Shown in pieces: positions 1 to 11,722 of a stretch of DNA of 21,924 nt. Position numbers and translations under genes: made by a program. The notes below the pieces were generated by a model, which saw only the letters and a program-made list of their open reading frames with translations, made no database searches and had not been told where the DNA came from. This stretch comes from a virus (lineage: Duplodnaviria > Heunggongvirae > Uroviricota > Caudoviricetes). The DNA is taken from IMG/VR virus record IMGVR_UViG_2609459833_000005, positions 1-21,924 of that record; one strand, 5' to 3'. Position 1 is the first letter of the stretch. Every line of letters starts with the position of its first letter.

Positions 1-402
1 ACCGACGTAGCCCCACTGTTCGTCCATTTCAGCGCAGACAATCACATCACTGCCCGGTTGTATGCGCGAGGTTACCGACTGCGGCCTGAGTTTTTTAAGT
101 GACGTAAAACCGTGTTGAGGCCAACGCCCATAATGCGTGCACTGGCGCGACATCCGACGCCATTCATGGCCATATCAATGATTTTCTGGTGCGTACCGGG
201 CTGAGAGGCGGTGTAAGTGAACTGTAGTTGCCATGTTTTACGGCAATGAGAGCAGAGATAGCGCTGATGTCCGGCAGTGCTTTTGCCGTTACGCACCACG
301 CCTTCAGTAGCGGAGCAGGAAGGACATCTGATGGAAATGGAAGCCACGCAAGCACCTTAAAATCACCATCATACACTAAATCAGTAAGTTGGCAGCATTA
401 CC
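1..402 (-). mobile_element. IS1-family insertion sequence, partial (terminal inverted repeat plus insA; the rest, including most of insB, lies beyond the window start)
   Basis: Reverse complement of 1-402 matches the remembered canonical IS1 left end: terminal repeat ggtaatgctgccaacttactgat at 380-402 (rc), followed by insA. Roughly 90% identity by eye, so an IS1 variant. Confidence 0.85.
72..347 (-). CDS. insA: IS1 InsA transposition regulator
   Basis: 91-aa ORF with GTG start; sequence [40 protein letters not shown] is near-identical to remembered InsA (Cys-rich zinc finger plus HTH). Confidence 0.9.
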
Positions 403-824: not shown

Positions 825-1871
825 TTAACGTCCTGCTTTCAGCTTCTGATAATACTCTTCATAAATGCTGCTGGCTGCGCCAACGTCATTCTGCCATTCG
901 CCATTTTTAATGGTTTCAGCATCCGGGTAGAGTGTTTTATCGTTCGCCACTTCTGGACTTAACAGCTTACGCGCCGCAAGGTTTGGCGTTGGATAACCGA
1001 TAGTTTCAGCAACCTGTTTTGCCACATCCGGGCGCAGCAGGAAGTTGATCAATTTCAGCGCGCCTTCTTTGTTTTTGGCATTTGCCGGGATCGCCAGGCT
1101 GTCCATCCAGAAAATGCCGCCTTCTTTCGGCCACACCACGTCAATTGGCGTACCCGCCTGGCGTGCAACGAAAGCAGAACCGTTCCAGATCATGCCGAGG
1201 TTAACTTCGCCTTCCATGTACGGGTTCGCCGGGTTATCGGAGTTAAAGGCTGCCACGTTTGGCATCAGTTTTTTCAGCTCGTTATATGCAGCTTCAATCT
1301 CTTTCGGATCGGTGGTGTTACCGGAGTAGCCCAGCTTACGCAGCGCCATCTGGAACACTTCACGGGCATCGTCGGTCAACAGCAGGCTGCCTTTGTACTC
1401 TGGCTTCCACAGATCGGCCCAGCTGGTGACAGATTTCGGATCCACCGCATCACCGTTAACACCAATCGCCGTCGCACCCCAGATATACGGAATGGAGTAG
1501 TCGTTATTCGGGTCAAAAGGCTTGTTGAGCATGTCTGGATCGAGATTGCTGAAGTTTGTTAACTTCGACTTGTCGATCTTCTGGATCATCCCTTCTTTAC
1601 GCATTTTATCAACGTAATAGGTTGAAGGAACCACCAGATCATAGGCACCGTCTTTGTATGTTTTCAGCTTGGCGTACATGGTTTCGTTCGACTCGTAAGT
1701 CGAATAGATAACCTTAATACCGGTTTCTTTGGTGAACTGTTCAAGCAGTCCTGGCGGCACGTACTCGGTCCAGTTGTAGAAATACAGCGTGTTGTTGTCA
1801 TCGGCGTGAGCGGCGCTCATGCCCAGTGCCAGAGCCCCCGCCGCGAGCAGGTGGCGTGACCATTTTTTCAT
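825..1871 (-). CDS. potD: Spermidine/putrescine ABC transporter periplasmic substrate-binding protein PotD
   Basis: 348-aa ORF with signal peptide MKKWSRHLLAAGALALGMSAAHA and the recognisable PotD sequence; start overlaps the potC stop. Confidence 0.95.
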   Translation of the reverse strand: MKKWSRHLLAAGALALGMSAAHADDNNTLYFYNWTEYVPPGLLEQFTKETGIKVIYSTYESNETMYAKLKTYKDGAYDLVVPSTYYVDKMRKEGMIQKIDKSKLTNFSNLDPDMLNKPFDPNNDYSIPYIWGATAIGVNGDAVDPKSVTSWADLWKPEYKGSLLLTDDAREVFQMALRKLGYSGNTTDPKEIEAAYNELKKLMPNVAAFNSDNPANPYMEGEVNLGMIWNGSAFVARQAGTPIDVVWPKEGGIFWMDSLAIPANAKNKEGALKLINFLLRPDVAKQVAETIGYPTPNLAARKLLSPEVANDKTLYPDAETIKNGEWQNDVGAASSIYEEYYQKLKAGR

Positions 1872-2662
1872 TTAACGTCCCCTGTGTTACCTTTCGTTTT
1901 ATCACGAGCAATAAGCTGGCTGGCAATAACCATCACCAGCGACAGCACCAGTAATATGGTTGCCAGCGCGTTAACTTCCGGCGATACGCCGACTTTGACC
2001 ATCGAATAAATTTTTAACGGCAGAATTTCATAACTTGGTCCGGTGACGAACGAAGAAACTACCACATCGTCCATCGACAGGGTAAAGCTTAACACCCAGC
2101 CCGCCGCCACCGCTGGCATTGCCAGTGGCAGAATGATTTTTCGCAGAATGGTAAATTCGCTGGCACCGAGATCTTTCGCCGCTTCCAGCATTCGCACGTC
2201 AAAACCTTTCAGGCGCGAATACACCGTCACCACCACAAATGGCAGGCAGAAGGTGATATGCGAGAACAGCAGCGACCAGAAGCCAAGCTGAATACCCAGC
2301 AGCATAAACAGCACCAGCAGCGAAATCGCCATCACGATATCTGGTGACATCATCACCACAAACAGCATTCCGCTAACGAACGGCTTACCACGAAAGCGAT
2401 AACGGTACAGCGCAACTGCCGTCAGTGAACCGATAAGCGTAGCAAACGTCGCCGAAAACACCGCCATTGTTAGTGAATGCTGCGCTGCCTGTAACAGGCT
2501 GTCGTTGTTCATCAGCAGGCTATACCATTTGGTGGTAAAACCCTGCCAGTTGATGCCAAAGCGCGAGCTGTTAAAGGAGTTCACAATCAAAATAATGATT
2601 GGGATATACAGGTACGCGTAGATAGCGGTCATAAAACCGCCGCGAAGCAGTCGACCGATCAT
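1868..2662 (-). CDS. potC: Spermidine/putrescine ABC transporter permease PotC
   Basis: 264-aa polytopic membrane protein MIGRLLRGGFMTAIYAYLYIPIIILIVNSF...; ABC permease EAA-like loop (EAAKDLGAS). Confidence 0.95.
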   Translation of the reverse strand: MIGRLLRGGFMTAIYAYLYIPIIILIVNSFNSSRFGINWQGFTTKWYSLLMNNDSLLQAAQHSLTMAVFSATFATLIGSLTAVALYRYRFRGKPFVSGMLFVVMMSPDIVMAISLLVLFMLLGIQLGFWSLLFSHITFCLPFVVVTVYSRLKGFDVRMLEAAKDLGASEFTILRKIILPLAMPAVAAGWVLSFTLSMDDVVVSSFVTGPSYEILPLKIYSMVKVGVSPEVNALATILLVLSLVMVIASQLIARDKTKGNTGDVK

Positions 2663-2828
2663 TCGAGTTCCACCTTCTTATTCATAAGGTGGAGCACTTT
2701 CAGGATTTTGAATTTATTCAATTTTTTCCTTTCTCCAAAATCTCTCCAAAACTTTTCCCCAAAACAAGGCCACGCATTTTACAACACTTTTTTCCTGAGA
2801 TGGTGACGGATATTCCATATGGTGTTTG
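2663..2828. other. Prophage left attachment region (attL) between potC start and integrase 3' end; site of potB displacement
   Basis: potB, which should lie directly upstream of potC, is missing; phage int begins here. Region holds direct repeats tctccaaaa (2732-2740, 2743-2751) and ccccaaaa (2757-2764) and an inverted repeat ccacctt...aaggtgg (2671-2693). Exact core not determinable without attR. Confidence 0.5.
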
Positions 2829-3947
2829 TCAAATAACCAACTTAACCCATTCCTGACCTCGAGTATCGTTATAGCGATCGGTGGTAGCCTGGACTTTATG
2901 TCCCAGTAATGTTTTTGTATCGACACCCTGTGCGCGGTACAACCGTTCTGACAGGGAGCGTTGTTCATGAAATGTTGGCGGTGTTTTTCCTGCTGGTGGA
3001 ATTATTCCAGCCAGATCTCGCGCTTTGGCGAAGTAATCGCTCAGGTTGTCTTTACTCATCGGTTTTGGTTGTTTCTGGTGCCTACTATGGATTAGGTATG
3101 GACTCAACATTCTGTCCCTGCATCCATCAATAACTTCTTTTAACGATACCCCAATTTCATCGCATCGTAGCGTAAGAGGTAAGGCCAGACGCATTCCGGT
3201 TTTTCCTTGGGTTATATGTAGATGTCCATTCCATACATCTGAAAAACGCATGTGGCAAATGTCATCACGGCGCTGACCAGTAACAATCGCAAGAAGCATT
3301 GCGTTACGGATAAAGTGTTTTTCTGGCGTTGCATTATAAATTTTTTGCCAGTCTTCCAGGGTGAGTCTGGATCTGGTCACTTTAGGGATCGGTTTACGGG
3401 TAGCCTCCGGAGGATTCCATCCAGGAGGAACTTCTCCCGCATGCTGTGCTTCTTTATAAATATCAACCCATAATCCGCGATTTACTCTTGCTGTGCTGAC
3501 CATGTCTTTATCCATCCACTCGTCCAGTATTAATGCAAAGTCTCTTACCTCCAGTTCTTTCAATGGGTGGTTTCCCAGGCGGGAAACCAGGTATGCAGCC
3601 ATTCGCACTTTTTCTTTGTGGGTTGTAGCTGCAATGTCTCCATTTTTCAGTCGCGAATCCTGTATTTTCAGATATCGATCAACCCATGCCTTTAATCTGA
3701 TACCCCGACGTTTTGTTGCTGATGGACTTTCATCAATTTTGCGCATGAAATATTCTGCTTCTGCTGCAGCTATTCGCTGATTGGCTGTTGCAGCGATTTT
3801 TTCTGCCTTGACTTTGTCTGTCCCAAGTCCGTGAAATTTTCCAGTCACAGGATTTTTATACTGGTAGTAAACCTTGCCAGTTCTGCGATCAAACTTTTCG
3901 TAAAGAGCTGCTACGTCAGTACTGTTTTTTCGTGGCCTCGGTGACAT
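2829..3947 (-). CDS. int: Phage integrase, tyrosine recombinase
   Basis: 372-aa ORF adjacent to att; C-terminal catalytic-type residues (…GQRRDDICHMRF…, …LLGHKVQATTDRYNDTRG…) typical of lambda-family integrases. Confidence 0.9.
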   Translation of the reverse strand: MSPRPRKNSTDVAALYEKFDRRTGKVYYQYKNPVTGKFHGLGTDKVKAEKIAATANQRIAAAEAEYFMRKIDESPSATKRRGIRLKAWVDRYLKIQDSRLKNGDIAATTHKEKVRMAAYLVSRLGNHPLKELEVRDFALILDEWMDKDMVSTARVNRGLWVDIYKEAQHAGEVPPGWNPPEATRKPIPKVTRSRLTLEDWQKIYNATPEKHFIRNAMLLAIVTGQRRDDICHMRFSDVWNGHLHITQGKTGMRLALPLTLRCDEIGVSLKEVIDGCRDRMLSPYLIHSRHQKQPKPMSKDNLSDYFAKARDLAGIIPPAGKTPPTFHEQRSLSERLYRAQGVDTKTLLGHKVQATTDRYNDTRGQEWVKLVI

Positions 3948-4194
3948 GGGTTAAAATCTCCTTCAGTGCGTCATCATCGCCAGTATGAATTTCCGGCGCA
4001 ATTCCAGCTTCACCCGGTCCAACAAAGACTGCGCGGCGATCTATTAGCCAGCGACCACGAATTTTTTGTGGTCTTGGTACGATGTATCCAAGTTTTCCGT
4101 ATTTCACCAGGGTAGTGTTTGTTATTGGGAGACTGAACCGCTTAGGTTTCCACTCGTCGAGCGTAATCAGGTACTGTTCGCTCATGACCATCAC
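3916..4194 (-). CDS. xis: Excisionase (Xis-like winged-helix protein); start ambiguous (GTG 4194, ATG 4191 or ATG 4185)
   Basis: N-terminus SEQYLITLDEWKPKRFSLP resembles lambda Xis MYLTLQEWNARQRRPRSLETV; lies directly upstream of and overlapping int. Confidence 0.6.
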   Translation of the reverse strand: MMVMSEQYLITLDEWKPKRFSLPITNTTLVKYGKLGYIVPRPQKIRGRWLIDRRAVFVGPGEAGIAPEIHTGDDDALKEILTHVTEATKKQY

Positions 4195-4246
4195 TCCGGA
4201 ACGCGCCAGTTGCAGAATACCAACTACAACCGGCGACGGTTGAACA

Positions 4247-6685
4247 TTAAAAATCAGCCTGACTCGGGATCAGTTTTTGCCAGATAACTGAAACGTATTT
4301 TGCCTGGTAACGGGCGTCATCAAGTGCATTATGGCGCTCACCTTCGAATGGAATAGCCGTTCTGGCATCGAAGTCTATGGCTTTCCCCAGCTCAACGATT
4401 GTGCGTACATCGCGATCGTTGTAGTAACGCCACGGGCAGGGGATCCCCTGCCGTTCGTATGAACGGCGCAAAATCGTGTTTTCGAAGTTGGCTCCATTTC
4501 CCCAGACCTGAACAAAAAATTCACCGGAGTTTTCGTCGATAAATTCCCGCAATTGTAACAGTGCATCATCTAACGGGATTTCATCGGTCATAATGGCAGA
4601 CTGCGCTTCACGTGATTGCTTCAGCCACCTTTTAATGACGTCACGATCAATGACTCCGCCAGCAGTTTCCAGATCGATAGTCTTACTAAATTCCGGTCCC
4701 ATATCTCCGGTTTGCGGATCGAAAAATATTGCATCTATTGAGATAATCGGGGCATCAGGATTTTTGCCCATTGTTTCAAGGTCAATCATCAGATGGTGCC
4801 ACAACCTGCTGGTGGATGTGCTTTTACGATGACCGTTCACCTTAATTAAGGGATTTGCTGTCTCGCCTATTTCATTATTGTCATTGGCATGTTGATCGCC
4901 TTCGGTGCACTCCTTGTTCGGGAGTCCGGCACTTTCTATTTCCTCTGGATCTTTTTCCCGGGCTTCATCCTGGCTTTCTTCGTTGAATGTCTCCTGGTAG
5001 GTTGCGTCACCCATCACTGCGCCACAATCAGGGCAGTTACCACCACCAGTCTGATTGCATGCGGTACAAACTTTTTCCTCTTCCTGTTGCACGACTGGTT
5101 CAGGTTGTTTCGTTTCTGGCTCGTTTTGTAACGCATTTGGGCTGTTTTGTTCCGCTTTCTGGTCGTTCTGTTCCGATTCTTGCTGGTTCTGGTTTACAGA
5201 ATCGCGGGTTTCAATCCCCTTTACCCATTTCGGATCATTCGGGTCGCTAATCCCTGCAACAAATTCTCCGCGAGAGGCAGCAAGCAACTTATCGGCGTCA
5301 GGCTGGCTGATATTGGCTGCCTGCATAATTTTGTTTACTTCGTCAGCGGTAACTTTTACCTGTGACTTGTCATCCAGCGGCTGCGGGTCCTGATGATGTT
5401 CAACTGTATCCGCTGCCATTGTTTCAGCCGTTGCCTGTTCATCTGCCATTGCGCCAGATGGTTGCGGGTTATCTTCATCATTTTTTTCTTCTTCTGTTTT
5501 GCACTCAGCAGCCAGTCCGCCGTTAATTTCTTCCAGGATATCTTTTTCCGGTGTATGCCGGGCAGCCATGAGCGTTTCAGCTGTGGGATTCTCGTGATCA
5601 GTTTCTGTCAGGTTGGCATTGATATACCCCTGAAGGCGCCCCGGGTAGTGATAAAACTCAGGGTGGGCGCTTCGGATAAGTGCAAAAATAGCTGCGCGGG
5701 AATAGTCCAGGATACCAGGGGTTGCGCGAAGTGCTGCGGACCATTCCCTGAACGGACTTTCTTTTTTCAGGACGATTTCTTTTGCGCGACGATAAACGCT
5801 GCCCGGAATTTCATAAATATTAAAATCCATCGGAAGTGTGGCTGCTGCAATCTCCACATCCAGCGCATCGAAGGTGTGTACTAAATTCGGATTGCGATCG
5901 GTTTTGTTCCCGCCACCGGCATTTGCACCGGAAGCCGTACGGGTGATACGCGAAACACGATTTCCTTTCATCCACTCTTTTGTCAGCAGACCCCGATCAG
6001 TGTAATCAGCGTCCAGGTATGCCTCGAAAAAAGCAGTTATCAGTCCCAGGTCTGAATTACCGGGATTAGGGAAAACTTTGTCAGTGTCGCGTACCAGTTT
6101 GTGAAGGTCGCGAATCTCCAGCGGGTCGAGCAGCTTTGTTTTGTGAGAAATGGCCAGGGCAGTAACAGCCGGCAGTTCTTCCGCCCGTGCTATATGTAAT
6201 GCCTGAAGTTCTTCCCGTGCAACGTGCGTTACTGGTTTTTCGCTGCTGTGTTGCGCAAGCCAGCGAATGGGCAGCTCCTGACCAGAAACCGGCAGGAGCA
6301 TATTCTCCTCAATCTCCGTCATGTCTTCGCCGTTGACGTTGGTATTGTCAGTACTGGCTGGTTTCTCCTGCACGGAGGGAGAGGGCGCGATAAATACCAT
6401 TGTAATGCCATCTTCCCCGCCTTTTTCGTATCGGTTGCAGAATTCGGTATCAAACACGCCTTCAGGTGGAAGGTCATTCACAACGGGTAAATGGACGCGA
6501 ACGGGTTTTTTAAAGTCGTCTTCATCATAATCGTTGTCATCCATTGCGGTAATGCAGCGGGAGATGGCAACAGATAATTTTTTTGCTGTAGTCCAGTAAA
6601 AACCACCTTTAATTCCCAGACGTTTTCTGACTTTGTCATTTTTTGCTTCGCAATATAGCGCAAATTCTTCTTTATCAGTGCTCAT
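4247..6685 (-). CDS. Exodeoxyribonuclease VIII-like prophage protein with C-terminal DEDDh (DnaQ-like) 3'-5' exonuclease domain
   Basis: 812-aa ORF; C-terminus has MIDLETMG (Exo I D-x-E) and [10 protein letters not shown] (Exo III with His); internal zinc ribbon [16 protein letters not shown]; long acidic low-complexity linker. Position matches the early-left recombination gene of lambdoid prophages. Confidence 0.6.
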
Positions 6686-8823: not shown

Positions 8824-9114
8824 TTAACAGCTTTTGTTTGGATACTGCCTTCGTGAGTGAACTACATTTACGATCTCGATGTTAGATGCTGTTACTCGGT
8901 AAAGTATTATGTAGTTAGGATGGGTCACTATCTCACGAAGGCCTAGAGCTCTTTCGCTTGGTGGATACAGGTAAGGGTGTTCAGTAAGTGACAAAACTGA
9001 TGTTTCAATGCGTATTTTTAGTCTACGTGCAGCGGGAGGGTTTTCCTTGGCAATATAGGCTACGATCTGACGCAAATCATCACGCGCAGAAGGTAGCCAT
9101 AAAATGGGCAGCAT
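8824..9114 (-). CDS. parE: ParE/RelE-superfamily type II toxin
   Basis: 96-aa ORF with ParE-like motifs (ARDDLRQIVAYIAKENPPAARRL, YIILYRV, IEIVNVVHSRR); start overlaps the stop of the upstream 63-aa ORF. Confidence 0.8.
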   Translation of the reverse strand: MLPILWLPSARDDLRQIVAYIAKENPPAARRLKIRIETSVLSLTEHPYLYPPSERALGLREIVTHPNYIILYRVTASNIEIVNVVHSRRQYPNKSC

Positions 9115-9305
9115 TACTCACTCCTGTTCGTCGAAGCTATTTGCGCAATAAGGTTTTCCATTTCAGCCATTACTTCGTCATGCGGAATTGCAGGACGGGG
9201 GTCTGCGAGGCTTGCTGCCACTTTGGTGCGTAACCATTCGTTATAGCTGTTTTCTTGTTCGATTGTTTCAAATTCTGAAATTATCGGGGAAAGGACTGTA
9301 CTCAT
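9114..9305 (-). CDS. Small antitoxin partner of ParE (PaaA-like, 63 aa)
   Basis: 63-aa acidic ORF with strong SD gaggagg 8 nt upstream; translationally coupled to parE. Size and context match the PaaA antitoxins of three-component PaaR-PaaA-ParE systems described in E. coli O157 prophages; family assignment from memory. Confidence 0.6.
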   Translation of the reverse strand: MSTVLSPIISEFETIEQENSYNEWLRTKVAASLADPRPAIPHDEVMAEMENLIAQIASTNRSE

Positions 9306-10678: not shown

Positions 10679-11722
10679 GTGAGTATGGCTAATGCCTGGC
10701 TCAGATTGTGGCATGACATGCCAAATGATCCCAAATGGCGAACCATTGCCAGGGTCTCAGGACAGCCAATCGCAACAGTGATGGCGGTGTATATCCACCT
10801 TCTGGTGAGTGCGTCACGAAATGTCACGACATGTCACGGCGTGTCACTACGTGGTCACATTGATGTCACGACGGAAGATTTAGCAAGTGCGCTTGATGTG
10901 ACGGAAGACGTAATTGATTCAATTTTGCATGCAATGCAGGGGCGGGTTCTGGATGGTGACCTTATTTCCGGATGGGAAAAACGTCAGGTGCTGAAAGAGG
11001 ACAATGGTAACGTTTCGCAAACGGCAAAATCCCCGGCAGAGCGCAAGAGAGCGCAGCGGGAGCGCGAAAAGCTGCGGAAATATGATGCTGATTGTCACGA
11101 TGAGTCACGACGTGTCACGCATCTGTCACGACAAGTCACGACAGATAAAGATACAGATACAGAATTAAACCCCACACATAACGCGCGCATGCGCGAGAGT
11201 GCTCCAACCGGTGAGTCGCATGGTGCGCCGTTGCAGACAGCCGAACCTGAATACCTGGACGGCCTGAGCGAACCGATCGGGAAATTTTCGATGACTACTG
11301 TCTGGCAGCCGTCGTCGGATTTTCGACAACGGGCAGCAGTGTGGGGTATGGCTCTGCCTGAGCCGGAATTTACACCTGCTGAGCTTGCCGCATTCCGGGA
11401 TTACTGGATGGCGGAGGGGAAGGTTTTCACGCAGGTTCAGTGGGAGCAGAAATTTGCCCGCCACGTGCAGCACGTCAGGGCACAGGTAAAACCAGTCAGC
11501 AAGGGGGTAAGCCATGCAGCATCAGGTGGCACGGCATCACGGGCAGTTCAGGAAATCCGGGCAGCACACGAACAGTGGGAACGTGACAACGGATTTATCA
11601 GCAACGGAAACGGCCTGGAAGCTGTGGGAGCTTATGGGGGAGGTGTATTCGAACCGCTGGACACAGAAGAACGGGGCCGCACCTTCGAAGCTCTGGATTG
11701 CCCAGATTGGCACGATGACTGA
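10679..11722 (+). CDS. Replication initiation protein (lambda O-like / YdaU-like), contains the putative phage origin iterons
   Basis: 347-aa ORF immediately upstream of a P-like gene; two clusters of GTCACGA repeats inside the coding sequence, as in lambda O/ori. Confidence 0.55.
   Translation: MSMANAWLRLWHDMPNDPKWRTIARVSGQPIATVMAVYIHLLVSASRNVTTCHGVSLRGHIDVTTEDLASALDVTEDVIDSILHAMQGRVLDGDLISGWEKRQVLKEDNGNVSQTAKSPAERKRAQREREKLRKYDADCHDESRRVTHLSRQVTTDKDTDTELNPTHNARMRESAPTGESHGAPLQTAEPEYLDGLSEPIGKFSMTTVWQPSSDFRQRAAVWGMALPEPEFTPAELAAFRDYWMAEGKVFTQVQWEQKFARHVQHVRAQVKPVSKGVSHAASGGTASRAVQEIRAAHEQWERDNGFISNGNGLEAVGAYGGGVFEPLDTEERGRTFEALDCPDWHDD
10811..10874 (+). repeat. Iteron cluster 1: six direct copies of GTCAC(G/T)(A/G) at about 10-bp spacing
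   Basis: gcGTCACGAa atGTCACGAc atGTCACGGc gtGTCACTAc gtgGTCACAt tgatGTCACGAcgg, read directly from the sequence. Confidence 0.8.
11093..11143 (+). repeat. Iteron cluster 2: five direct copies of GTCACG(A/C) at 10-11 bp spacing, followed by an AT-rich stretch (candidate ori)
   Basis: tGTCACGA tgaGTCACGAc gtGTCACGC atctGTCACGAc aaGTCACGAc, then agataaagatacagatacagaattaaa. Confidence 0.8.

Follow-up and report, generated by a model that had tools for sequence, protein, structure and literature searches.

Prophages at potB of Escherichia coli have been described before. Both a prophage and its site are known as Phi-CFT073-potB (PMC4632033, PMC3573123), and the Rac-like or lambdoid gene content of this prophage has been reported (PMC4632033). 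A prophage named PP_potB occurs in O157:H7 clade 8, where its patchy distribution among subgroups was ascribed to frequent deletion or repeated acquisition (PMC9997748), and PP_potB prophages are involved in both inversions and deletions (PMC10925052, PMC9997748). A 'potC' prophage site is known from O157:H7 of the UK (PMC10925052), and, according to the passage of PMC8065619 in which Steyert et al. are cited, potC is an insertion site of Stx phages in LEE-negative STEC. No paper on the core, the overlap or the arm sites of the potB att site was found in the searchable literature, nor was anything relevant found there on the expression of potABCD in lysogens. A map of this site, comprising the core, the probable overlap and the arm consensus TCTCCAAAA, would help to call prophage boundaries exactly.

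Here, we analyzed a stretch of viral DNA of 21,924 nucleotides (in the following, the window), which holds one end of a prophage next to potC. The junction is an ordinary, already named prophage site, and its architecture is that of the textbook lambda case. As judged from comparisons of sequence, the interval between potC and the integrase gene int is very probably the attL site (B-O-P') of a lambdoid prophage of the Phi-CFT073-potB type, in which three direct repeats serve as P' arm sites.

Organization of the locus

Read from the left, the minus strand of the window contains a fragment of ymfA cut by IS1, followed by potD, potC, a gap, the genes for an integrase, an excisionase and an exonuclease, and lambdoid early genes (Table 1). 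The gap coincides exactly with positions 2663-2828. It is bounded by the start codon of potC (at 2662, minus strand) and the stop codon of int (2829-2831), and it is 166 nt long and T-rich (62 T). Further prophage content of the window comprises an HTH repressor pair, YdaT and DUF968; a RusA-family annotation is present in the related prophage of strain SW070917.

Integration at the 3' end of potB with int adjoining potC is as in the Phi-CFT073-potB/PP_potB group, and so is the Rac-like or lambdoid gene content, for example the RecE-like exonuclease. Compared to Phi-CFT073-potB of the UPEC strain CFT073, the interval between potC and int is identical in 160 of 166 nt, with none of the six differences inside the repeats; the integrases are 95.7% identical, and both elements have the gene order potD-potC-int-xis-exonuclease-ydfD/dicB. 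In contrast, the prophage is mosaic past int, xis and the exonuclease gene, where CFT073 matches the window in patches only, with 82-93% identity. Among 5426 complete E. coli genomes, 1604 (about 30%) contain a junction of potC and int (at least 80% query coverage). The sequence-only reading of this DNA had mentioned potB/potC as an attachment site of some lambdoid prophages of E. coli, which agrees with this count and with the published record.

Table 1. Position of features at the prophage end and in the adjoining host and phage genes.
Feature	Position	Strand	Basis
potD, intact, 348 aa	825..1871	-	ORF list; Pfam solute-binding-protein families; length and position same as K-12 potD
potC, intact, 264 aa	1868..2662	-	ORF list; K-12 comparison; Pfam; aligned 5' part identical to K-12
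potB 3' remnant, host-derived, ...NKKVELE and TGA stop overlapping the potC ATG	2659..2684	-	K-12 identity; frame translation
Candidate core-type half-site B, TCCACCTTC, host side	2669..2677	+	perfect inverted repeat with 2685-2693
Common core, 12 bp, CCTTCTTATTCA	2673..2684	.	three-way alignment of attL (window), attB (K-12) and attR (SW070917)
Probable 7-bp overlap (strand exchange), TTATTCA	2678..2684	.	between two inverted 9-mers, inside identity block
Candidate half-site C', TAAGGTGGA (reverse complement TCCACCTTA), first phage bases	2685..2693	-	inverted repeat
Palindrome TTGAATTTATTCAA between core and repeats	2708..2721	.	position of lambda IHF site H'
Three tandem direct 11-nt repeats, consensus TYTCYCCAAAA, candidate arm-type sites P'1-P'3	2730..2764	+	repeat search
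Conserved block GGCCACGCATTTTACAA, apparent outer edge of P' arm	2768..2784	.	cross-genus conservation, E. coli to Pantoea
Tyrosine integrase, 372 aa, lambda-type arm-binding N-terminal domain	2829..3947	-	Pfam PF09003, PF00589
Excisionase (Xis), 92 aa, overlaps int start	3916..4194	-	Pfam PF07825; RefSeq name
RecE-like exonuclease, 812 aa, Exonuc_VIII domain	4247-6685	-	domain match

The prophage is inserted inside the 3' end of potB

In an alignment with the uninterrupted potC-potB region of K-12, identity runs to position 2684 and is followed by unrelated sequence, which places the breakpoint at 2684/2685. Beyond it lie int, xis and the gene of the RecE-like exonuclease. On the host side, what is left of potB comprises its final 22 nt and the overlapping stop, all identical to K-12. 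The genes potB and potC overlap (ATGA). Since the identity to K-12 ends at 2684, the insertion site is inside the 3' end of potB, about six codons before the stop, and not between the two genes. The ribosome-binding sequence of potC, AAGGTGG, lies within the retained tail of potB and was kept, as was the start codon of potC.

The window ends inside the prophage, and attR was therefore taken from strain SW070917, which matches the window with 100% identity across the junction (positions 1800-4300). In this strain, the prophage spans about 55 kb and potA-potB are found at its far end. The core CCTTCTTATTCA, which occurs only once in the window, is common to attL, attR and the uninterrupted attB of K-12. 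At attR, the reading frame of potB runs into phage DNA and ends with ...LLNKKATEIDD* instead of the native ...LLNKKVELE*. The resulting PotB protein has an unchanged start and, with 287 aa (RefSeq) versus 285 aa, is two residues longer than the native one. In other types of P arm, the potB tails read VSELDD, VNELDD or VSDISD. The phage thus brings along a replacement for the 3' end of the gene it targets, and potB remains open at attR.

The sequence-only reading had postulated a prophage inserted at the potB-potC junction with attL next to an intact potC. The prophage junction and the integrity of potC (264 aa, with an aligned 5' part identical to K-12) were confirmed; with respect to the insertion point, the locus was right but the crossover lies within potB, in a region where the two genes overlap. 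Similarly, potB had been regarded as missing. Its body is indeed absent, but its last 22 nt and the stop (2659-2684) remain. The assumption that potB was displaced rather than lost, and that attR and the remainder of potB are to be sought beyond the window, was borne out by SW070917.

The change of VELE to ATEIDD, VSELDD or VNELDD is comparable to the replacement of gene ends at icd and ttcA. In phage 21/e14 at icd and in Rac at ttcA, attP mimics the terminus of the target gene, which stays open with a few changed residues; the Rac/ttcA case is described in PMC4632033, where Phi-CFT073-potB is also mentioned. In contrast to icd and ttcA, potB is an internal gene of an operon, and its stop overlaps the start of the next gene. 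The repair of potB therefore restores neither co-transcription nor translational coupling of potC-potD.

The P arm at attR of SW070917 additionally contains a perfect 14-bp hairpin, GGCATGCTTTTTAC/GTAAAAAGCATGCC (L004, 14318-14351; z = -4.0), which has no T-run. It immediately follows the repaired potB and precedes a co-oriented gene of the YkgJ family, and a smaller hairpin occupies the corresponding place in the other type of P arm. The hairpin may act on int or potAB transcripts.

Candidate core-type half-sites and the probable overlap

The 7-bp sequence TTATTCA at the phage-proximal end of the core is flanked by two 9-mers, which are perfectly inverted relative to each other. From this arrangement we infer core-type half-sites B and C' on both sides of a 7-bp overlap (Table 1). 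The perfect inverted 9-mers are limited to the allele of the window, and potB has a weak B' half-site. In other alleles, C' reads CCCGCCTTA or CACGCCTTC, and only the consensus ..CCTT. holds; CFT073 has three mismatches in this half-site.

A junction that bears on the position of the overlap was found in the IMG/VR contig L015. There, the P' arm of a potB phage is joined to unrelated, Qin-like tail-fibre DNA at GAATAA, followed by AGGTG, and the identity to the normal context of the Qin-like DNA begins exactly at GAATAA (L015 ~5041, L032 ~2490). Such a junction would be the expected product of recombination at a secondary site sharing six of the seven overlap bases, and it supports the proposed overlap as a single case. 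It looks like the result of secondary-site recombination mediated by the integrase, or of a rearrangement between prophages.

The integrase belongs to the lambda family

The N-terminal residues 1-64 of the integrase match the arm-binding domain PF09003 (Arm-DNA-bind_1) with an E-value of 6.8e-22, and a catalytic domain (PF00589) is also present. The protein matches the structure of lambda Int (1Z1B) over nearly its full length with an E-value of 1.9e-55, and it is 34.5% identical to lambda Int (tblastn). Among relatives, residues 1-64 are the best conserved part, with 81-83% identity versus 68% for residues 65-190. The Xis ORF scores 23.0 bits against PF07825, which is exactly the cut-off; an identical gene is named 'excisionase' in RefSeq.

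The element resembles lambda in that the integrase combines an arm-binding N-terminal domain with a catalytic domain, int is oriented towards the att site, and its start is overlapped by xis. The att sites and Int of lambda used for comparison are those of Landy and co-workers and of PDB 1Z1B, 1Z1G and 5J0N. Differences from lambda are the target, which is inside potB instead of between gal and bio, the sequence of the core, and the distance of the int stop from the overlap, which is 145 nt here and about 76 nt in lambda.

The reading frames of int and xis are both intact, which argues against the notion that the junction is the frozen scar of a defective, rearranged element and that potB was perhaps lost or moved by other rearrangements. 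Several observations are compatible with such a scar: the window holds only one end of the prophage, IS1 has cut the neighboring ymfA, pseudogenes and insertions of IS4 or IS200 occur among related prophages, and PP_potB prophages are involved in the inversions and deletions mentioned above. However, the sequence of the junction is canonical and the same as in the 1604 genomes, and IMG/VR contigs contain P'-O-P junctions of the attP type that belong to this element. Moreover, the frequent deletion or repeated acquisition proposed for PP_potB in O157:H7 subgroups is at variance with a frozen element. We consider a scar very improbable.

Three phased direct repeats are candidate arm-type sites

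As had been noticed in the sequence-only reading, the gap contains direct repeats with the motif CCAAAA. There are three 11-nt copies, TTTCTCCAAAA (2730-2740), TCTCTCCAAAA (2741-2751) and TTTCCCCAAAA (2754-2764), whose spacing of 11 and 13 nt corresponds to approximately one helical turn. The exact 9-mer TCTCCAAAA occurs at two places, both of which belong to this array, and nowhere else in the window.

Is this more than low complexity in an AT-rich spacer without any function? The T-richness of the gap speaks for such a chance origin. Three of the six matches of YCCAAAA in the window fall into the gap. In the window as a whole, the motif is not over-represented (6 found versus 10 expected). 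Furthermore, a lenient criterion, which asked for any 6-mer in three copies and any 9-mer in two, was reached in 16.5% of simulations with local composition; repetition alone is therefore weak evidence. In place of this uninformative statistic, we determined the frequency of a phased triple, i.e. of one 6-mer occurring three times with a spacing of 9-14 nt. Among first-order Markov simulations, only 0.9% contained it, and among mononucleotide shuffles 0.1%; in the real window the pattern is restricted to the gap and an iteron region at 10.8-11.1 kb. Two further observations contradict a chance origin: the array is exactly kept in other genera despite diverged flanks with insertions of 20-35 nt, and an additional exact 9-mer recurs in two unrelated P arms at a constant distance from the core, as detailed below. 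In sum, it is extremely improbable that the repeats arose by chance and have no function.

The position of the repeats was compared with that of the arm sites of lambda. Offsets were measured on the lambda record, in which the overlap TTTATAC is at 280-286; the identities of the lambda arm sites we take to be those given by Ross and Landy and in Landy's reviews. Counted from the overlap, P'1-P'3 of lambda begin at +50, +60 and +70; P1, a direct site, ends 130 nt before the overlap. The repeats studied here start 48, 59 and 72 nt after the proposed overlap. In an attP that was rebuilt from the P arm of SW070917 and the P' arm of the window, the P arm contributes a fourth exact copy of TCTCCAAAA, which has the same orientation and ends 123 nt before the overlap. 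The candidate sites share with lambda the layout of three tandem P' copies at about 50-80 nt from an overlap of 7 bp and of a direct P-arm copy about 125-130 nt away from it. The arm motif itself is unrelated, being TCTCCAAAA here and C/AAGTCACTAT in lambda.

The P-arm copy TTTTGGAGAA is located 129 nt from the start of the core in four IMG/VR contigs with genuine P'-O-P junctions (L010, L011, L022 and L024), and 130 nt from it in SW070917, whose P arm is quite unlike that of the four contigs. In the L010-type arm, a direct copy with one mismatch, TTTTCGAGA, adjoins the P-arm site. No copy of TTTTGG was found in 380 nt of the P arm of the attP-like contig L017, and a search for an inverted second P-arm site like P2 of lambda gave no convincing match, so that a clear counterpart of P2 was not found here. 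As a possible free-phage attP, two matching records of a phage collection were considered; they were rejected, as they are prophage predictions with host flanks (lolE to potC) and contain attL only.

The array is conserved in other genera

Twenty loci had been fetched from IMG/VR by means of the repeat sequence itself. The conservation of repeats 1 and 2 in these loci is circular, and only loci anchored on the integrase count. Four such loci were retrieved through the integrase protein alone, independently of the repeat sequence; they originate from Citrobacter sp. Cu233, C. meridianamericanus, C. pasteurii and Candidatus Pantoea alvi. All four adjoin potC, and all four keep the array GTTTTGGnGrrAAGTTTTGGAGAnATTTTGGAGAA. 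Around the array, the spacer of the Citrobacter and Pantoea loci has diverged and contains the insertions of 20-35 nt.

Taken together, the arm-binding domain, the lambda-like positions, the copy in the P arm and the conservation of the array across genera support the view that the integrase binds the CCAAAA repeats as arm-type sites P'1-P'3, and we regard this assignment as very likely. The sequence-only reading had named arm-type integrase sites as a possibility.

The sequence between the core and the repeats contains a palindrome, TTGAATTTATTCAA, at the place of the lambda IHF site H'. Compared to the IHF consensus WATCAANNNNTTR, it has two mismatches and is a poor match; its TTGA...TCAA frame is kept in the Citrobacter and Pantoea relatives. 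Judging by its position, the palindrome may have an IHF role.

On the other side of the repeats, the conserved block GGCCACGCATTTTACAA follows. In two independent loci, namely L016 from E. coli and L006 from Citrobacter, about 0.9 kb is inserted between int and the P' arm, and this insert ends immediately outside the block, which thus apparently delimits the functional P' arm on its outer side. The block could be an additional protein site or contain a -10-like TAAAAT facing potC.

Cargo cassettes between int and the P' arm are present in some members of the family (L016, 11963-12629; L006, 5117-6000). The cassette of L016 contains two minus-strand ORFs of 155 and 73 aa.

Proposed course of integration

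In the mechanism that we favor, a tyrosine integrase of the lambda family, which uses two kinds of DNA site, would have recombined attP with a site in the last codons of potB. Strand exchange would have occurred within TTATTCA, inside the core that attL, attR and attB share. As a result, attL would retain, on the side of potC, the last codons of potB, the stop and the ribosome-binding site of potC; at attR, the remainder of potB would be fused to a short C-terminus encoded by the phage and stay open. The N-terminal domain of the integrase would bind the three repeats while the catalytic domain acts at the core, and the repeats, the P-arm copy, a DNA-bending site and Xis would form integration and excision complexes as in lambda.

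A role of the repeats other than the binding of integrase was also considered. The protein bound might be Xis, IHF, Fis or some regulator of the host, or the repeats might serve as a promoter or leader element through which potC-potD remain expressed despite the split of the operon. They are situated upstream of potC on its coding strand; the adjoining conserved block contains TAAAAT (in int sense TGTAAAATGCGTGG, 2768-2784); and neither a sigma-70-like promoter nor a terminator-like site was found between int and potC, so that an expression of potCD in lysogens would call for another explanation. However, the TAAAAT of the block is without a -35 element, and the repeat motif also occurs in the P arm. 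That copy ends up in attR, far from potC, and is at a conserved distance from the core; this fits a function in att and not a promoter of potC. The Xis and Fis sites of lambda are located in the P arm and not in P', which is at odds with a binding of Xis or Fis to the repeats. Moreover, the repeat positions of +48, +59 and +72 match those of P'1-P'3 in lambda, and the arm-binding domain of the integrase needs such sites. A role other than that of arm sites is thus quite improbable, and the repeats are best explained as P' arm sites of attL.

Consequences for potC and potD

The prophage now parts potC from potA-potB and their promoter, which, according to the sequence-only reading, may alter the expression of the operon. 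In a scan of positions 2400-4400, neither a sigma-70-like promoter nor a terminator-like site was detected between int and potC. When the attR region was included, no promoter-like site was found either; terminator-like matches were at chance level and located outside the potC-int interval. Transcripts in the sense of int would therefore run into potC. According to the proposed mechanism, the potA promoter would be lost to potC-potD, whose transcription would then depend entirely on read-through from int or other phage transcripts, or on an unrecognised weak promoter.

A possible, though rather unlikely, consequence is that potC-potD are transcribed from the prophage, either by read-through from int/xis or from an outward promoter at the TGTAAAATGCG block (2768-2784). 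If this were true, the levels of the spermidine-uptake permease and of the binding protein would, in about 30% of E. coli strains, vary with the prophage state, and an integrase occupying all three arm sites would be positioned within the leader of the potC-potD transcript. In about 30% of the complete E. coli genomes, potABCD is split, potB is repaired and potC-potD are orphaned, which may affect polyamine uptake.

A mini-ORF created by the junction (ATG 2685-2683, MNKKVELE*), which might couple translation into potC, was rejected: it is without a ribosome-binding site, and its ATG is absent from the Citrobacter and Pantoea junctions.

Further features of the window

At the left end of the window, the 3' part of ymfA is truncated by the end of an IS1 element. 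The IS1 part occupies positions 1-402 (InsA ORF 72-347, minus strand; terminal inverted repeat to 402) and the ymfA part positions 403-776. This IS1/ymfA junction was found as one piece in none of the 5426 complete E. coli genomes searched; the DNA may originate from Shigella or from an E. coli strain outside this set.

A gene for an N6/N4 DNA methylase of 352 aa (19364-20422) is located downstream of RusA/antiterminator-like genes. In Stx phages, the toxin genes are found at this position. Neither a toxin-sized ORF nor an stx gene was noticed in the window.

In the early region, a ParE/RelE-family toxin (96 aa) and a PaaA2-type antitoxin (63 aa) are encoded at 8824-9305 on the minus strand, adjoining a repressor-like HTH gene. 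Iteron-like 10-nt repeats with the consensus TGTCACGAC and a spacing of 10 nt form two clusters, at 10812-10872 and 11093-11142. Both clusters sit inside an ORF of 347 aa (10679-11722) that resembles a replication initiator, and they look like origin iterons within an O-type gene, as in lambda.
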